Shown one piece after another: positions 16,640 through 23,256 of a stretch of DNA of 64,000 nucleotides (the first letter of the stretch is position 1; each line of letters starts with the position of its first letter). Origin of the DNA: Candidatus Peribacteria bacterium (lineage in GTDB: Bacteria > Patescibacteriota > Gracilibacteria > Peribacterales > Peribacteraceae); the NCBI GenBank assembly GCA_041691135.1, contig JBEPVF010000001.1:64001-128000 (forward strand), written 5' to 3'. Both the position numbers and the translations under genes were made by a program. A model generated the notes under the pieces. It did no database searches, was not told where the DNA came from, and was given only the letters and a program-made list of their open reading frames with translations.

Positions 16640-19168
16640 TTAATACATGATCGGACCCCGGGCGTCCGTTGCCGGGAAGTCCACTTTGTTCTCGAATTTC
16701 ACGTCACTCAAGCTGTGGCTCTGCAGCCCCCCTTGCGACAGAGTAACCAATGATTCACTCAGACGTAGAATGCGCGTGATGTCTTTGCCCCACAGATAGC
16801 TGCCTGATTTTTGCTTGTCCTCATCCGTGTAGTGAGTAATTTGGCCGCGAAGCGTCAGACCTTTGTCGAGCGAAATATTGTAGACGTACGCGCCTTGGAA
16901 AGTTTGCGTCGCCATGGCTTCGTCGGGCTTCTTGTCTTTTTCGGCGCCGAGGAATTCCATGACGTTCACAGGGAAGGCCAGCAAGTTGCGTGACTTGTCG
17001 AATAGCAATGCATGGTGATCGTAGAGGAGGGGACTGTCGGTGCCGCGATCGCCGATCACGGTCTTGTACATCTCCTTAGGATTGTTCACGTCCGACACAT
17101 CGAAGATGGCTACCTTCAGGCCTTGGACTGCCGTGTAATAAACTGCATTGTCACTGTGGACCTTGTCGGCATCGATGGATTCGTCGACTTCTTTGCCAAA
17201 GCCGATCAAGTGTGTTTCGTCGTAAGGATGAAGGTAGCTGCTGTATCCCGGAATCTTCAGTTTGCCGAGGATTTTCGGGTTGTGCACATCGCTCAAGTCG
17301 ATCACAAAGAGGGGATCGACTGTCTTGAACGTAACGACGTACGCACGGTTGCCGATGAAGCGCACTGCGTAGATGCTCTCGCCCGGCGCGATGCCGTCGA
17401 CTTTGCCGATTGTTTTGAGATCCATGTCAGTTACAAACAGACTGTTCGACATCGATGCGGCGGGATCCCAGTTGTTCCCGATGCTCGTCGCCACGCGGAA
17501 GGTGTCGCCGCTTTCATCCATGGCAAATTGGTTGAGTAAGTGTCCGGGAACCGATCCCTGTGCCTTGAGTTCAATGCCGTCGGATGTGAAGGCGAAGCGG
17601 AAAAAATTCGTTTTTTCGTTCTGCTGTGGATGCGCGGAATCCCATACATAGTTTTGCTGCAGCGATGCGACGTACAAGTTATCAAGGGAGGCGTAGACAT
17701 TCTGCGCATCACCCACGATCGTTTTCGTCTTCACATCCGCGTTCAAGTTTGTCGTCGGGATCACGGCAACGGTCAGGTAGGCCGGTGACAGTATGTGCGG
17801 CAGGATGGCGATCTTGGCACAGGTTGTTACAGGCATTTCGGCCGTTCCCTTGGTTGAGTCGCTGAACTTGGGAAGGATTTGATCCTCCTTTACGTTGTCG
17901 AGCGGGATTGGCTGATTCCACTGCATCGACTCGTTCAGGACCATGTACAACTGATCATTGATCATGCGCGTCGACACGCTGTTTCCGTCAAAGCGTACCG
18001 TGCGTTCCAGCTTCGGATTGGCCGGATCAGTCACGTTGTAGACGCGAATGTCTTCTTTCTGGGCCATGAAATACGGGCGCATGATCATCATGTCTCCCCG
18101 GATCTTGCTCATCGGCATCACCGGGCCGTTATTCCATGCGTTGCCGACAACGATCAGGTGATCACCGTTCAAATACAATTCCTGAGGCGTCACATTGTCT
18201 TTGGAGAAATCAATCGTCGCCACTTGCTTCATGGCGCTCGCCGGCTGCGACTTCACAATGTACACGTTCTGGTTCTGAACCGTGTATACGTAGGTTCCGT
18301 CGGTCTTTACCGTATCGCCTTCATCCACTCCTTCGACCTGCACATTCGTCGTCGAGTGATCGGCCATTACAGCCGTTGAATTGGCGGACTTCATCTCGGC
18401 GCCGGGAGCGGCTTGGGGTGCCACCGCATCGCGCATCATGAGCGGACCGCCACCGTAACCTATGCTTTGAGTCGATAGTGTTGCACCAAACGCGCTGATA
18501 TCTGCACAGGTCTTCGCTGTCTGCACCGCATCGGATGCGGTGTTGATGCTCAGCTTCGGATTCTGAATATTCAGTACGCCCTTGGTCGGCTGATCGGTTT
18601 TCTTCTCGCTGATGCGCCACATCATTTCGGCCATTTCGCCGCGAGTGAGGAGGGCATCGAGTTTGCCGATCGTCGGTGGAATGGCTTTAGCCGATTCGAG
18701 TGCGCTCGTGTATGGCGTGTACCACTCGCCGCCTGAACTTTCTACTTTTTGCTTGTAGGCAAGCGATAGGACTTTTGATGCTTCCACAAACGTGATGTTC
18801 TGCCCCGGCTTGGCGGTACCGTCGGCGTAGCCCGACACGATGCCTTCGGCCTTGGCGGTGCAGAAATATTTGGCGAACCATTCGTCTTTCACGTCCGGGA
18901 AACAGTTGCTTCCCGTAAGATCGGCGGTGCCGCGCGCTTCCAAAATGATCTTCAAAAATTCACCACGCGTGATGGATTGACCGGATTTGAATGTGCCATC
19001 GGCATAGCCCTTGAGCACGCCTTTGGCTGCCAGCGCATCGATGGCAGTACTGTATTGGGTGCCTGCTTTTACATCACTGAATGCGAAAGTGCTCACTGGA
19101 AAAAACGTCGCAGCCATGCCAATCAGTGTGGCAGCCGCTGCGGCGCGGGGAGTCGAGAAACGTATCAT
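16640..19168 (-). CDS. Secreted SLH-domain protein with C-terminal beta-propeller domain
   Basis: Signal peptide; GYADGTFK..ITRGEF SLH repeats; TNVQVEGVDEGD.VKTDG and VTFKTVDPLFVIDL...GKLKIPGYSSYLHP. Confidence 0.9.
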   Translation of the reverse strand: MIRFSTPRAAAAATLIGMAATFFPVSTFAFSDVKAGTQYSTAIDALAAKGVLKGYADGTFKSGQSITRGEFLKIILEARGTADLTGSNCFPDVKDEWFAKYFCTAKAEGIVSGYADGTAKPGQNITFVEASKVLSLAYKQKVESSGGEWYTPYTSALESAKAIPPTIGKLDALLTRGEMAEMMWRISEKKTDQPTKGVLNIQNPKLSINTASDAVQTAKTCADISAFGATLSTQSIGYGGGPLMMRDAVAPQAAPGAEMKSANSTAVMADHSTTNVQVEGVDEGDTVKTDGTYVYTVQNQNVYIVKSQPASAMKQVATIDFSKDNVTPQELYLNGDHLIVVGNAWNNGPVMPMSKIRGDMMIMRPYFMAQKEDIRVYNVTDPANPKLERTVRFDGNSVSTRMINDQLYMVLNESMQWNQPIPLDNVKEDQILPKFSDSTKGTAEMPVTTCAKIAILPHILSPAYLTVAVIPTTNLNADVKTKTIVGDAQNVYASLDNLYVASLQQNYVWDSAHPQQNEKTNFFRFAFTSDGIELKAQGSVPGHLLNQFAMDESGDTFRVATSIGNNWDPAASMSNSLFVTDMDLKTIGKVDGIAPGESIYAVRFIGNRAYVVTFKTVDPLFVIDLSDVHNPKILGKLKIPGYSSYLHPYDETHLIGFGKEVDESIDADKVHSDNAVYYTAVQGLKVAIFDVSDVNNPKEMYKTVIGDRGTDSPLLYDHHALLFDKSRNLLAFPVNVMEFLGAEKDKKPDEAMATQTFQGAYVYNISLDKGLTLRGQITHYTDEDKQKSGSYLWGKDITRILRLSESLVTLSQGGLQSHSLSDVKFENKVDFPATDARGPIMY

Positions 19169-19360
19169 AAGAAGAGAGGGGAAGATGTCTACACTGACAT
19201 AACGTTGAGGGTACCAAAAAGGTTACAGTACATCGGGAGGTTCTGTGGTGTGCGTCAAATCATTTCTGTATATCTAAAAGCGGCCGGTATGTCGGCCGCG
19301 AGGTTGATCGATGGGCCGGCCATCCCATGTGGAAGGCCGTAAATTCTCGTTCGCAATTCA

Positions 19361-19522
19361 TTACGTCTGTTCATCCATTTTTGGCGGGTTGAGTCGGTCC
19401 GCTATCATCATAAGGATGGCTCCGATGATTGGAATAGACCAGAGATCGTGCAGTTGAAACATATACACGTAGGCCCCGCCAACCGCGAAAATCAGTCCGA
19501 CTACAAGAACCAGTCGTTTCAT
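19361..19522 (-). CDS. 53-aa two-TM small protein (cassette 1)
   Basis: MKRLVLVVGLIFAVGGAYVYMFQLHDLWSIPIIGAILMMIADRLNPPKMDEQT; AGGTG SD-like sequence upstream. Confidence 0.75.
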   Translation of the reverse strand: MKRLVLVVGLIFAVGGAYVYMFQLHDLWSIPIIGAILMMIADRLNPPKMDEQT

Positions 19523-19666
19523 GGTCTCACCTGTAACGAGAGGCGAAATGATCAACTGAAGCTAACCTACAATAAAAATGAAAATTACAAAATTTTTCTT
19601 GGCCTTGGTTCACAGCAAATAAAAGGCGGCCGGATGAACCGGCCGCAGGGGTTGATCGGAGCCTGT

Positions 19667-19846
19667 CTAGATGACAGGTGTGTGATACTTGGTTCGGCGC
19701 CATGGCCGCAGCCTCCAGAATATCAGTGCGCCGATGAGTGGCACCGGGCATGCCCAGAGGTATTTGCCGCTGAGGGCGATGTACATTCCAAAGGCCACGA
19801 ATGCCACGCCGAGGATATGGAGAATGACCAGCCGAAATGTTCCCAC
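19667..19846 (-). CDS. 59-aa two-TM small protein (cassette 2)
   Basis: GTG start after AGGAG; MGTFRLVILHILGVAFVAFGMYIALSGKYLWACPVPLIGALIFWRLRPWRRTKYHTPVI; shares LW..(.)P.IGA with cassette 1. Confidence 0.75.
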   Translation of the reverse strand: MGTFRLVILHILGVAFVAFGMYIALSGKYLWACPVPLIGALIFWRLRPWRRTKYHTPVI

Positions 19847-19985
19847 GATGCTCTCCTGTGCATGAGACATGGAGGATTTGATCAACTCAAACCAATCTAT
19901 AACAAAAATAAAAATTACAAAGTTTTTCTTGTGCCTTGACCTATGTCATGTAGAAGCGGCCGGTATGAACCGGCCGCAGAGTTGA

Positions 19986-20132
19986 TCACTCTCGTGTGGC
20001 GTACAAGCACAAGGACATGAACGCCGCCACTACCCACAGGATGATAGCTACCGACATGGGCCCTTGGACCCAAAAGTTGAAGCCGGTTCCTACGGTGACA
20101 GCCACCGCAAGCAACCCAATGAAGCGGAGCAC
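19986..20132 (-). CDS. 48-aa two-TM small protein (cassette 3)
   Basis: Not in the ORF track. GGGAGGTG SD then GTG; MLRFIGLLAVAVTVGTGFNFWVQGPMSVAIILWVVAAFMSLCLYATRE; the TGA stop overlaps GATCAAC. Confidence 0.75.
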   Translation of the reverse strand: MLRFIGLLAVAVTVGTGFNFWVQGPMSVAIILWVVAAFMSLCLYATRE

Positions 20133-20361
20133 TGTCACCTCCCTCTTTTAAAGAATTAAGGACATGCGATCAACAAGTACTAAATTACAATAAAAAATTT
20201 AAAAGGCAAATAATTCTTCGTACTCCATAGTCTGGTAGAAGGCCGGGGTGACGGGCAACAATCAGCGATGAATCGGACTAACTCCATTGGCCGCGAAGAA
20301 AGCGGCACCGCCATGCTGAAAAATCTGCTAAATGTTTGTCGAGCCATCTGACTTTTCAATT

Positions 20362-20392
20362 GAAAAAGCCCGGCTCATCACCAGGCTTTTTC
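20362..20392 (-). terminator. groEL terminator
   Basis: GAAAAAGCCCGG...CCAGGCTTTTTC hairpin with A/T tails. Confidence 0.8.
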
Positions 20393-20410
20393 TTAATTCC
20401 ACAGTTCCTT

Positions 20411-22048
20411 TTAGTATTCCATATCTCCCATGCCTCCTCCCGGCATTGCGGGCATCGGCTTCTCTTTCTCCGGAATGTCAGTAACAGCCACTTCCAACGT
20501 GAGGAACATTGAGGCTACTGATGCGGCGTTCTGCAGTGCGCTGCGCGTGACTTTCTTTGGGTCGATGACCATTGCTTTGACGAGGTCCTCGTACTCGCCG
20601 GTCATCGCGTTGTAGCCGACGTTGCCCTTGTAGTTGCTCATCACTTTTTCGACGACTACTTTGCCTTCGACGCCGGCATTGTCGGCGATGTGGCGGGCCG
20701 GAGCTGACAAAGCGCCGCGGATGATTTCCACGCCGATTTGCTCGTCTTCATTCTTGAGCTTCAACTTATCAAGCGCTTCGATGGCGCGGATGTAGGCCGT
20801 GCCGCCACCCGGGACGATACCTTCCTCAGCTGCGGCGCGCGTTGCGGACAGAGCATCTTCCACGCGGTGCTGCTTCTCTTTCTGTTCGATTTCCGTCGCG
20901 GCTCCCACTTTGACGACAGCGACACCACCGCTCAACTTTGCGAGTCGCTCCTGGAGCTTTTCGCGATCGAAGTCGGACTTCGTGTTGTCGACAGCGGCCT
21001 TGATTTCGTTCTTGCGGGCTTCGATGTCTTTCTTGCTGCCAGCACCGTCGATGATGAGGCAGTTGTCCTTCGTCGCGACGACGCGGCGAGCCTGACCCAA
21101 GTCATCAGCCGTAGCATTTTCGAGCTTCAAGCCGACTTCCTCCGAGATCACGCGACCACCGGTGAGGACGGCGATGTCTCTGAGGATCTCTTTGCGGCGA
21201 TCGCCGAAGGCCGGAGCTTTGATGGCGAGTGTGCTGAATGTGCCGCGCAGTTTATTGAGTACGAGGGTGGTGAGCGCTTCTCCTTCCACCGTCTCGGCAA
21301 TGATGACCAGCTCCTTGCGACCCTTCTGGGCAAGTGACTCGAGCAACGGCAGGATTTCCTGGATGGAGGCGATTTTTTTGTCGGTGATGAGAATGTACGG
21401 GCGTTCGAATGTCGCTTTCATCGTCGCCGGATCGGTGACGAAGTACGGCGAAATATAACCCTGATCGAACTGCATGCCTTCGACGAATTCTTTTTCGAGG
21501 CCCAGCGTCTGTCCGGCCTCGACCGTGACGACGCCATCCTTGCCCACTTCGTCGATCACTTCGGCAATCACTTCGCCGATCTCCGGATCTTGTGCCGAAA
21601 TCGTGGCAACAGCGGCGTATTCCTCACGCTTGTTCACCGTCTTCTTCTGTGTATCCAAATGATCAACGACGGCATCGACGGCCTTCATGATGCCGTTCTT
21701 GATGCTGATCGCATTCTTGCCGCTGCCGAGGTGCTTAAGTCCCTCCTGCATAATGGCATGCGCGAGCACGGTAGCAGTTGTTGTTCCATCTCCGGCGGCG
21801 TCATTGGTCTTGGTGGCGGCCTGCTTCACCAATTCGGCACCCATATTTTCGTACGGATCCGGCAGTTCGATTTCTTTGGCGACGGTTACGCCGTCTTTGG
21901 TGACAGTCGGTCCGCCGTACTTTTTGTCGATGCATACGTTGCGGCCGAGCGGGCCCATCGTGGCGGATACGGCATTGGCGAGTTTGGTCACTCCCTTGAG
22001 GAGTTTTTCGCGCGCTTCGTTACTGAAGAGGAGTTGCTTGGCTGGCAT
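20411..22048 (-). CDS. groL: Chaperonin GroEL
   Basis: [24 protein letters not shown]-like tail. Confidence 0.99.
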
Positions 22049-22093: not shown

Positions 22094-22441
22094 TTATTTA
22101 CCCTCGACGAGTCCGAGGATCGAATCAAGGTGGAGAATTTTTACTTCGATATCTTTGCCATCGACGCTCTTGAGCTTCACATCGTCGCCGGCGTACTTGC
22201 CGAACAGGACCGTATCGCCGACTTTTACGAATTCGGATGGATTCACACTGTCTTTACCAATACCACCTTTGCCAACCGCGATCACGATTCCTTCCTGTGG
22301 CTTTTCGCCGGAAGCGGTATCGGGGATCACGATGCCCGAGGCGGTCACGCTTTCCTTTTCGAGCGGACGGACAACGACGCGGTCACCGATGGGTCGGATA
22401 TTGACGGCGAGTTTGGGAGTTTTCGATGTGGAGGTTGCCAT
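22094..22441 (-). CDS. groS: Co-chaperonin GroES
   Basis: IRPIGDRVVV, TASGIVIPDTA, VKVGDTVLFGKYAG. Confidence 0.98.
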   Translation of the reverse strand: MATSTSKTPKLAVNIRPIGDRVVVRPLEKESVTASGIVIPDTASGEKPQEGIVIAVGKGGIGKDSVNPSEFVKVGDTVLFGKYAGDDVKLKSVDGKDIEVKILHLDSILGLVEGK

Positions 22442-22707: not shown

Positions 22708-23256
22708 ATGAACTTCCTCCGCGTAATGATCAGAAAATTGTCGCACCGGCTCCGGGGCTTCACGCTCATCGAAATTATGATGGCGATTGCGATCATTTCG
22801 ATTCTCGCGACGATCGTCTACGGTTCTATCGGAAATGCCTTGGAAAAAGCGCGTTTTGCACGAGCGAAGGCGGAGTTGTCGGAAATCGCAAAGGCTGCCG
22901 AACAAATGGCGCTCAACAATGGCGGTATATGGCCGCCTGATGCCAGCCGTTCCTTGCCCTCCGGTATCGAAACATATCTTGGACCGGGTACGTGGCCCGA
23001 TGCCCCCTGGGATGGATCCGTGTTTGATTGGGACAACTTCGAAACAGACTTGGGCGAGCAGACGTATCAAATCTCCATACGCTTCTGCCCGCTTGGACTG
23101 CCCGATCAATGTAAATTCCCCGATGAGCCATGGGCCAAAGACTTCGATTACTACAGCAGCGTCTATTATTGCATCTATGGCCATTGCCGCGCACATATCA
23201 ATATGCCGGCGGATCATCCGGGTTTGTGTGTAAATTGCGGGGATAACGTTCAGTAA
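22708..23256 (+). CDS. Type IV pilin / pseudopilin-like protein
   Basis: RGFTLIEIMMAIAIISILATI prepilin cleavage motif; Cys-containing C-terminus. Confidence 0.9.
   Translation: MNFLRVMIRKLSHRLRGFTLIEIMMAIAIISILATIVYGSIGNALEKARFARAKAELSEIAKAAEQMALNNGGIWPPDASRSLPSGIETYLGPGTWPDAPWDGSVFDWDNFETDLGEQTYQISIRFCPLGLPDQCKFPDEPWAKDFDYYSSVYYCIYGHCRAHINMPADHPGLCVNCGDNVQ

Follow-up and report, generated by a model that had tools for sequence, protein, structure and literature searches.

Three small-gene cassettes behind groEL

This report concerns a 64,000-nucleotide (nt) stretch of a Candidatus Peribacteria genome (the window, to which all positions below refer unless a contig is named) and, within it, an array of three short units, each made up of a promoter, an open reading frame (ORF) and a terminator, on the minus strand at 19276-20215. 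The genome under study (G000) comprises 1.74 Mb on 35 contigs and is 92% complete. The array is placed between the end of groEL (20411-22048) and a gene for an SLH/beta-propeller surface protein (16640-19168). The units, which we term cassettes 1 to 3 in order of increasing coordinate, lie downstream of groEL; each is 288-346 nt long, and the spacing between them is 330 and 288 nt.

All three cassettes share one order of elements: a T-rich block with a TAnnnT box, exactly 7 nt, the heptamer GTTGATC (the 5' arm), a leader with a Shine-Dalgarno sequence, the ORF, the heptamer GATCAAC (the 3' arm), 3-4 nt, and a hairpin of the form GCGGCCG(G)...CCGGCCGC with a T-containing tail. A sequence-only reading of the window had described three minus-strand units with these elements, and every detail of that description is present in the sequence. 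The promoter block of cassette 3 (20175-20219), read by eye, is T-rich and is the third copy of a direct repeat, D1; its TAATTT box (20187-20182) stands 7 nt before the 5' arm (20168-20174), which would supply the first bases of the mRNA and is paired in both the minimum free energy (MFE) and the centroid folds. The ORF (19986-20132) encodes 48 amino acids with two membrane-like segments and begins at a GTG after GGGAGGTGA. Its stop codon overlaps the 3' arm (19981-19987; TGATCAAC), as the sequence-only reading had it, and 3 nt further on is the hairpin GCGGCCGGT-tcat-ACCGGCCGC (19956-19977), whose weak, T-poor tail is TTCTAC and which the terminator scan omitted.

Cassette 2 has its promoter block at 19887-19931, a D1 copy 85% identical to that of cassette 1, with TAGATT (19899-19894) 7 nt before the 5' arm (19880-19886). 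Its ORF (19667-19846; 59 amino acids) starts with GTG after AGGAGAG and encodes two membrane-like segments and a basic and aromatic C-terminus. The 3' arm (19651-19657) is 9 nt past the stop codon and 4 nt before the terminator GCGGCCGG-ttcat-CCGGCCGC with the tail CTTTTATT (19626-19646), which was called by the terminator scan with 8 G-C pairs. In cassette 1 the promoter block (19557-19601) is the reference copy of D1, with TAGGTT (19569-19564) again 7 nt before the 5' arm (19550-19556). The ORF (19361-19522; 53 amino acids, two membrane-like segments) begins with ATG after AGGTGA; the 3' arm (19303-19309) lies 51 nt past the stop codon and 3 nt from the terminator GCGGCCG-acatac-CGGCCGC with the tail TTTTAGAT (19280-19299), likewise called by the scan, with 7 G-C pairs.

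The cassette frame is better conserved than its cargo. In global alignments between cassettes, identity was 68-78% for the promoter block and 82-88% for the 3' end, against 53-61% for the ORFs and 54-61% for the remaining 5' untranslated region (5'UTR), values near the level of unrelated sequence for so permissive an alignment. The pattern of a conserved non-coding frame around diverged ORFs had been noticed from the letters alone, as had a motif, LW..P.IGA, common to the proteins of cassettes 1 and 2; the motif falls within an alignment of those two proteins at 30% identity (E 0.002). No alignment was obtained between the proteins of cassettes 2 and 3. The window contains three instances of the combination GATCAAC-N3-4-GCGGCCG, 100 shuffles of it contained no instance, and these same three copies are the sole ones in the 1.74-Mb genome. 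Because the bare heptamer is as common as chance predicts (14 matches, 13.07 expected), what is significant here is the arrangement and not the heptamer.

Two further sequence relationships within the array were recorded. A segment inside the cassette 3 ORF (20082-20095) is complementary to the 5' arm and loop of the cassette 3 terminator (19963-19974; 12 nt, 92%; inverted repeat I5) and to the cassette 2 terminator (19630-19643; 14 nt, 86%; I1), which could provide an alternative pairing or could reflect chance in G+C-rich sequence. Upstream of the cassette 3 promoter, between it and the groEL terminator (20215-20360, minus strand), the sequence CCGGCCTTCTACCAGACTATGG resembles the 3' half of a terminator together with the spacer found after cassettes 3 and 2. 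The repeat D6 joins 19329-19339 with 20235-20245, and an alignment has conserved columns there. This stretch may be the decayed remnant of a fourth cassette.

Single cassettes in related genomes and the complementarity of their arms

The region after groEL was read in four other species of the same genus (G150-G153), and single cassettes were found downstream of groEL in G150, G151, G152 and a metagenome contig, L071; the unit is triplicated in G000 only. The comparison thus covers seven cassettes from five genomes of one small clade. In G150, TATAGT is followed after 6 nt by GTTGATC, an ORF for a 76-amino-acid membrane protein, GATCAAC and, 1-2 nt on, a CCGGGAG...CTCCCGG hairpin (one pair longer when folded) with a T-run. 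G151 has TATATT, 6 nt, GTCGATC, a 56-amino-acid ORF, GATCGAC, 1 nt and the hairpin GGAGGGAGCGC; G152 has TACTAA, 6 nt, GTCGGTC, an 84-amino-acid ORF, GACCGAC and a hairpin identical to that of G151. On L071, where groEL is 81% identical, AAGAAT is followed after 7 nt by ACCGATC, a 90-amino-acid ORF, GATCGGT, 2 nt and the hairpin GGGCGAAGC. Each of the seven units has a Shine-Dalgarno sequence and a start codon, and its open frame encodes two or more hydrophobic segments. The ORFs of different species cannot be aligned with one another. The comparison of cassette number and cargo that the sequence-only reading had proposed gives one unit in each of these four relatives against three in G000, with cargo that is not alignable; the G000 locus is a triplicated form of a unit found singly in these relatives.

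The single units also bear on the idea that the spacer bounded by GATCAAC and GTTGATC is an integron attC-like site or an insert resembling a miniature inverted-repeat transposable element, and the array a cassette array. A perfect 10-nt inverted repeat, TGATCAACTC/GAGTTGATCA (I8), does span the spacer between cassettes 3 and 2, with 90 nt between its arms, and the heptamer resembles the attC core, GTTRRRY. In the four genomes with one cassette, however, the arms lie on either side of the ORF and a spacer module is lacking, which contradicts this explanation. Nor does the spacer fold as a single imperfect palindrome, its hairpin being off-centre; no integrase was found among the neighbouring ORFs tested, and the element occurs nowhere else in the G000 genome. 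We regard an attC-like or mobile-insert origin as extremely improbable.

The arms of the seven cassettes fall into four haplotypes: GTTGATC/GATCAAC (the three G000 cassettes and G150), GTCGATC/GATCGAC (G151), GTCGGTC/GACCGAC (G152) and ACCGATC/GATCGGT (L071). MAFFT misaligned the ends of the seven transcripts, and the pairing table was computed in register by a script instead. Watson-Crick pairing is present in 49 of 49 cells (7 positions in 7 cassettes). At four of the seven positions (1, 2, 3 and 5) both sides have changed, always as a pair of transitions, a kind of double change that can pass through a G-U intermediate. The borders of the helix are sharp, with the outer flanking position pairing in none of the seven cassettes and the first inward position in two. 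When the columns of the four haplotypes were shuffled, full pairing was reached in 66 of 20000 trials; the haplotypes are related, and the figure is a guide and not a probability. The sequence-only reading had held that the first seven bases of each message can pair with the seven bases before the terminator and had asked whether these ends are conserved or covary in homologous loci. Both are seen in G150, G151, G152 and L071, where the complement is perfect and the four doubly changed positions keep it so.

These data weigh on the plainest explanation, that of an old triplication in which the matching ends are an inherited accident without function. The three G000 copies do hold their heptamers in common by descent, the bare heptamer is no more frequent than chance, and by chance about 17% of the terminator-like hairpins in the genome (33 of 192) have a complement of the adjacent heptamer upstream. 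Across species, though, 5'UTRs, ORFs, promoters and terminator stems can no longer be aligned, and still the arms match each other perfectly; four double substitutions have occurred, and the borders of the helix are sharp. Nor can gene conversion be expected to act on 7-bp repeats 190-370 nt apart, given its need for longer homology. An accident of descent is therefore improbable in our estimate. The hairpin count is itself informative: because the 33 of 192 compare with 28 in a reversed control, the end pairing of the cassettes is not a by-product of composition, and no excess of end pairing at terminators was found genome-wide in G000.

The placement of the arms is as regular as their pairing. 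In all seven cassettes the 5' arm begins 6-7 nt after a -10-like hexamer, which has the form TAnnnT in five and is TACTAA in G152 and AAGAAT in L071, and the 3' arm ends 1-4 nt before the terminator stem. The 5'UTR is constant at 34-42 nt, and the gap between stop codon and 3' arm ranges from -2 to 92 nt. The stop codon lies within the 3' arm in cassette 3, G152 and L071, and within it or no more than 13 nt from it in five of the seven. Because the distances to the -10-like hexamer and to the terminator are kept while the distance from stop codon to arm varies, the position of the arms follows the predicted transcript ends rather than the reading frame, and we prefer a reading at the level of RNA mainly for this reason.

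The same anatomy was weighed against a role in DNA, in which the 7-bp inverted repeats would be crossover sites at which a site-specific recombinase turns the ORF over between promoter and terminator, both fixed, to switch it on and off, or exchanges the cargo. Inverted repeats do bracket a variable ORF, and promoter and terminator outside them are conserved; the cargo is not alignable between species, and compensatory changes would be expected if both sites had to match each other or a single protein. A DNA site, however, need not sit 6-7 nt after a -10 box or abut a terminator stem, and both distances are kept. The ORF is in the sense orientation in seven of seven cassettes from five assemblies; 7 bp is very short for an inversion site; and no recombinase family was detected among 10 neighbouring ORFs tested (10.7-26.5 kb), the neighbours being housekeeping genes. 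One DNA run, available as contigs and possibly from the source sample, showed the stretch as a single identical contig without joints, which is weak evidence given that contigs drop rare variants; a look-up of sequencing runs listed no RNA run with the stretch. Inversion or recombination sites, which the sequence-only reading had named as an alternative, fit the anatomy less well, and the locus takes a single form in that contig-only run; we consider them very unlikely.

A predicted end clamp and its known counterparts

Transcripts were folded from the first base of the 5' arm through the terminator tail. A helix that joins the 5' end to the 3' end, beside the terminator, is present in the MFE structure of all seven predicted transcripts, and for the three from G000 it is also present in the centroid, with z-scores of -4.12, -4.16 and -2.48. 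The arms of cassette 3 fold as a 9-bp helix whose one G-U pair is within the 2-bp extension. Keeping the 5' arm unpaired would cost 3.2, 6.5, 5.7, 7.8, 0.8, 9.7 and 6.3 kcal/mol in the seven transcripts. The interpretation that we favour, and hold to be fairly probable from the sequences and modelled structures, is that the arms form an RNA clamp on the ends of mRNAs for small membrane proteins, each cassette being its own transcription unit.

Under this interpretation each cassette would be transcribed separately to yield a small, fast-evolving protein with two to three membrane segments. The mRNA would probably start at or within one base of the 5' heptamer, as placed by the -10-like box 6-7 nt upstream. 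Its first seven bases would pair with a stretch of seven that lies 1-4 nt ahead of the terminator hairpin, so that the finished message would be closed end to end, with the 5'-3' helix adjoining the terminator stem. The 5' end would then likely be hidden from 5'-end-dependent decay and the 3' end protected by the terminator hairpin, so that the message would be long-lived. Since the stop codon lies inside the 3' arm or at most 13 nt from it in five of seven cassettes, a terminating ribosome should melt the helix there, and stability could in this way be coupled to translation. The decay enzymes predicted from the genome are of the relevant kind: G000 encodes RNase J (TIGR00649, 517.7 bits, cut-off 400) and RNase Y (TIGR03319, 578.4 bits, cut-off 454), and RNase E/G (PF10150) was not found in the 92%-complete genome.

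The leaders of ompA and ermC are 5'-terminal stem-loop stabilisers of mRNA. Such stabilisers resemble the cassettes in that pairing of the first nucleotides blocks 5'-end-dependent decay (the principle is given in PMC5737220), and differ in being local hairpins, whereas the partner strand here is 190-370 nt away at the 3' end. Among known systems, the cassettes seem closest to the 5'/3'-UTR interaction of hbs and to the hok and aapA1 toxin mRNAs. In Bacillus subtilis hbs, part of the 5'UTR pairs with a fully complementary stretch immediately before the terminator; the pairing slows decay and links stability to translation, and structure near the 5' end is stated to block RNase J1 (PMC5737220; Braun, Durand and Condon 2017). 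The cassettes share with hbs a leader complement just upstream of an intrinsic terminator, here a perfect 7-bp complement 1-4 nt before the stem in seven of seven cases and covarying, and a host whose decay runs through RNase Y and the 5' exonuclease RNase J, both of which G000 encodes. They differ in that the hbs duplex is 14 nt long, A/U-rich and inside the leader behind two 5' hairpins, whereas the cassette helix is 7 bp long and involves what are predicted to be the very first bases. The hbs product is an abundant DNA-binding protein and the cassette products are orphan membrane proteins; support for the cassette pairing, moreover, comes from covariation and folding and not from experiment as for hbs.

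With hok and aapA1 the cassettes have in common a small membrane protein, a compact structured message, paired 5' and 3' ends and tandem repetition (PMC5416894, PMC2887945). In the aapA1 mRNA the two ends form a helix of 11 bp, and the same paper also cites hok (PMC5416894). In aapA1, however, that helix is itself the terminator, it hides the ribosome-binding site, and a cis-antisense RNA is present (PMC5416894). The cassettes have a separate hairpin after the helix, a ribosome-binding site that is not clearly hidden, and no antisense RNA that sequence scans could find; their proteins carry two or more membrane segments and are not similar to known toxins.

These likenesses raise the possibility that the cassettes are true type I toxin-antitoxin modules, in which the small proteins would act as toxins, the clamped full-length mRNA would be stable and inert, as in hok or aapA1, and an antisense or trans-acting RNA that escaped detection would block translation of the active form. 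This proposal contains the RNA clamp and adds to it toxicity and an antitoxin. Type I toxins are small hydrophobic membrane proteins, generally of 70 amino acids or less (PMC2887945). The G000 proteins, at 48-59 amino acids, are hydrophobic with at least two membrane-like segments, and basic and aromatic C-termini occur in cassette 2 and G152. Tandem repetition within one intergenic region, with similarity extending beyond the ORFs, is the search criterion of Fozo et al. (PMC2887945) and describes the array; the pairing of the two ends has the precedents just given. The units are also set apart from their neighbours, each with what appear to be its own promoter and terminator, their presence is patchy, and their cargo is orphan and fast-changing.

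Seen across species, the proteins conform less closely. The seven ORFs encode 48, 59 and 53 amino acids in cassettes 3, 2 and 1 of G000, 56 in G151, 76 in G150, 84 in G152 and 90 in L071, and the three at 76-90 amino acids, with two or three membrane segments, are larger than typical type I toxins. No Pfam family was reached at cut-off by any of the seven, PADLOC gave no match among the cassette proteins, and the toxin families in these two libraries were likewise without a match. By sequence, membership was not found in the known toxin families considered (Hok, Ldr, Fst, TisB, Ibs, ShoB, Zor, AapA and others). A profile built on the G000 trio returned only self matches from 5.8 billion clusters and 1.84 billion representatives, and a protein atlas gave no match of at least 0.9 for the cassette proteins. 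Against 200 genomes of the family the same profile gave 5 weak matches (E 2e-4 to 0.01), of which 3 fell within frames of 419-685 amino acids and 2 in short frames (76 and 59 amino acids, the latter with an internal TGA); we did not count them as homologues. The cassette proteins appear to be orphans that evolve faster than their frame.

As to the antitoxin half of the type I proposal, no antisense promoter or terminator common to the cassettes was found, in a scan that is weak and missed the sense promoters too; one plus-strand promoter-like site was detected, in cassette 1 only, and the total for the region is at chance (2 against 1.6 expected). No Rfam antitoxin family lies inside the cassettes, and elsewhere in G000 there is no complement longer than 15 nt, with four matches against our own chance estimate of about 2.5. 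The Shine-Dalgarno sequence is not clearly sequestered. In addition, the 3' arm is upstream of a strong hairpin, and simple 3' trimming would not free the 5' end, unlike in hok. The likeness to type I toxin loci proposed in the sequence-only reading lies in the architecture; within these insensitive scans, neither a shared antisense promoter, an Rfam antitoxin nor a long complement was found. That the cassettes are complete type I modules is in our view doubtful, if less so than the explanations at the level of DNA or descent discussed above.

Several observations weigh against the end clamp. The three sense promoters were assigned by eye and escaped the consensus promoter scan, and the spacer from TTGTAA to the TAnnnT box is just 15 nt in cassettes 1 and 2. 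The TTCTAC tail of the cassette 3 terminator is poor, and only the hairpins of cassettes 1 and 2 were called by the terminator scan. The helix is just 7 bp long and is marginal in G151, with pair probabilities of 0.36-0.78 and an opening cost of 0.8 kcal/mol. The ribosome-binding site is not consistently hidden, the probability of being unpaired in the Shine-Dalgarno window being 0.24-0.67 against transcript means of 0.32-0.42. The five genomes belong to one small clade, and the four haplotypes are not independent. There is no G-U pair within the 7 bp to tell RNA from DNA, and a constraint on DNA would preserve matching changes in inverted repeats too. Another species of the genus, G153, carries a different small-ORF unit without a visible clamp in the 727 nt of contig that remain after its groEL. 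Finally, G150 has another small membrane gene that ends in the 18-nt terminator of its cassette, CCGGGAGTTCGCTCCCGG, and carries no clamp.

The last two units have features of their own. At the G153 site (L027/L041) a TTGACA-17-TACATT promoter precedes two overlapping ORFs, one of 32 amino acids and membrane-like, the other of 91 amino acids with a coiled polar tail. The second G150 gene, at about 838-1240 of L235 (G150:C12), has a TTGACA-17-TAATAT promoter, encodes about 94 amino acids and has no 5'-3' complement; the CCGGGAGTTCGCTCCCGG hairpin appears to be common to unrelated small genes of G150.

Distribution of the arrangement and its possible meaning

We searched for the arrangement elsewhere in the genome and in the family. 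In G000, the pattern GAYCRAC with a hairpin and a 5' partner 187-247 nt away returned only the three cassettes; a GACCAAC site with a 6-bp AT-rich hairpin, no T-tail and its partner at 403 nt was taken as chance. In 200 family genomes, GATCAAC-N2-6-GCGGCCG had 21 matches in 20 other genomes, and these were judged to be chance because none has GTTGATC within 330 nt upstream and most are in coding-like sequence. In three genomes of another genus, g61 (G130, G131 and G134; loci L016, L017 and L019), a GCGGCCG-loop-GGCCGC hairpin with a T-run stands 2-3 nt behind GATCAAC; no GTTGATC was found within 330 nt upstream of these hairpins.

A strict scan downstream of groEL in 29 of 30 loci (L068 was left out) found the arrangement in G000, G150 and G151 only; the scan also listed L052, with an A/T-rich complementary pair 609 nt apart. 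Applied to another set of 157 groEL loci, a strict scan gave 31 rows, of which only L071, L149 (the G151 contig) and L160 (the G150 contig) fit. A looser scan admitting G-U pairs gave 34 rows; those inspected (L049, L127, L096 and L087) all lie inside or antisense to larger genes and were rejected, L223 duplicating the L127 match and L088/L089 that of L087. No relative of the L071 cassette DNA turned up in the 200 family genomes. Within the reach of these scans, the putative clamp is confined to one syntenic cassette in a small clade and is not general in the genome or the family.

The surroundings of the array are unremarkable. Upstream of groEL is groES (22094-22441), and divergent from it, at 22708-23256 on the plus strand, is a gene for an ordinary 182-amino-acid protein with a prepilin-type N-terminal methylation motif (PF07963, 5.8e-09). 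The surface-protein gene on the other side matches Pfam Beta_propel (5.7e-161) as well as SLH. The neighbours include genes for thymidylate kinase, FolD, PurF, PurD and proline synthesis besides the prepilin-type protein. A plus-strand ORF of 163 amino acids (19448-19939) extends across cassettes 1 and 2 and takes in one terminator and one promoter block; it matches no Pfam family and was judged spurious. Rfam matches below threshold cover the groEL terminator (20309-20392 on the plus strand and 20349-20418 on the minus strand), namely the OrzO-P antitoxin (27.4 bits, gathering threshold 60), cyano_het_sRNA (27.3, threshold 35.7) and BSnc120 (20.9, threshold 114), and are most likely driven by the hairpin. 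Short repeated words, GAGTCTTGA and GAGTCCTGA, follow the groEL terminator in G151 (L025) as in G152 (L030).

To our knowledge, end-to-end pairing of bacterial mRNAs has been described in only a few studied cases, such as hbs, icaR, hilD, hok and aapA1. The cassettes suggest an element of the same kind, 5'/3' end pairing of a bacterial mRNA, in an uncultured lineage of the candidate phyla radiation (CPR). According to PMC12390103, type I systems have so far been found only in Proteobacteria, Firmicutes and Tenericutes, and a literature search on Peregrinibacteria with toxin terms gave no mention of the phylum among the matches listed.

The anatomy of the cassettes, their conservation at one syntenic site in five genomes and the compensatory changes in their arms are observed, and the predicted folds agree with them; the start site, pairing in vivo and an effect on decay or translation are what we infer from them. 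More tentatively still, and with considerable doubt, one may picture this Peribacteria lineage as keeping, behind groESL, an RNA frame (promoter, 7-nt 5' end, 7-nt complement before the terminator, hairpin) for hypervariable small membrane proteins. The clamp would make a dormant, long-lived message until ribosomes or a nuclease opened it, either as a hok-like type I module or as a closed-loop mRNA with its stop codon in the 5'-end helix, and would be the first such case in the CPR.

What points to the clamp here is a set of natural compensatory mutations, rather than experiment, in units that join orphan small membrane proteins to a conserved site next to the chaperonin operon. If the interpretation is true, the cassettes would offer a compact, testable RNA element of 14 nt and a hairpin. 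They would also open a way into post-transcriptional control in organisms that have tiny genomes and RNase J/Y-type decay, and their arrangement could be used to search the CPR for small genes so far hidden or for type I-like toxins.

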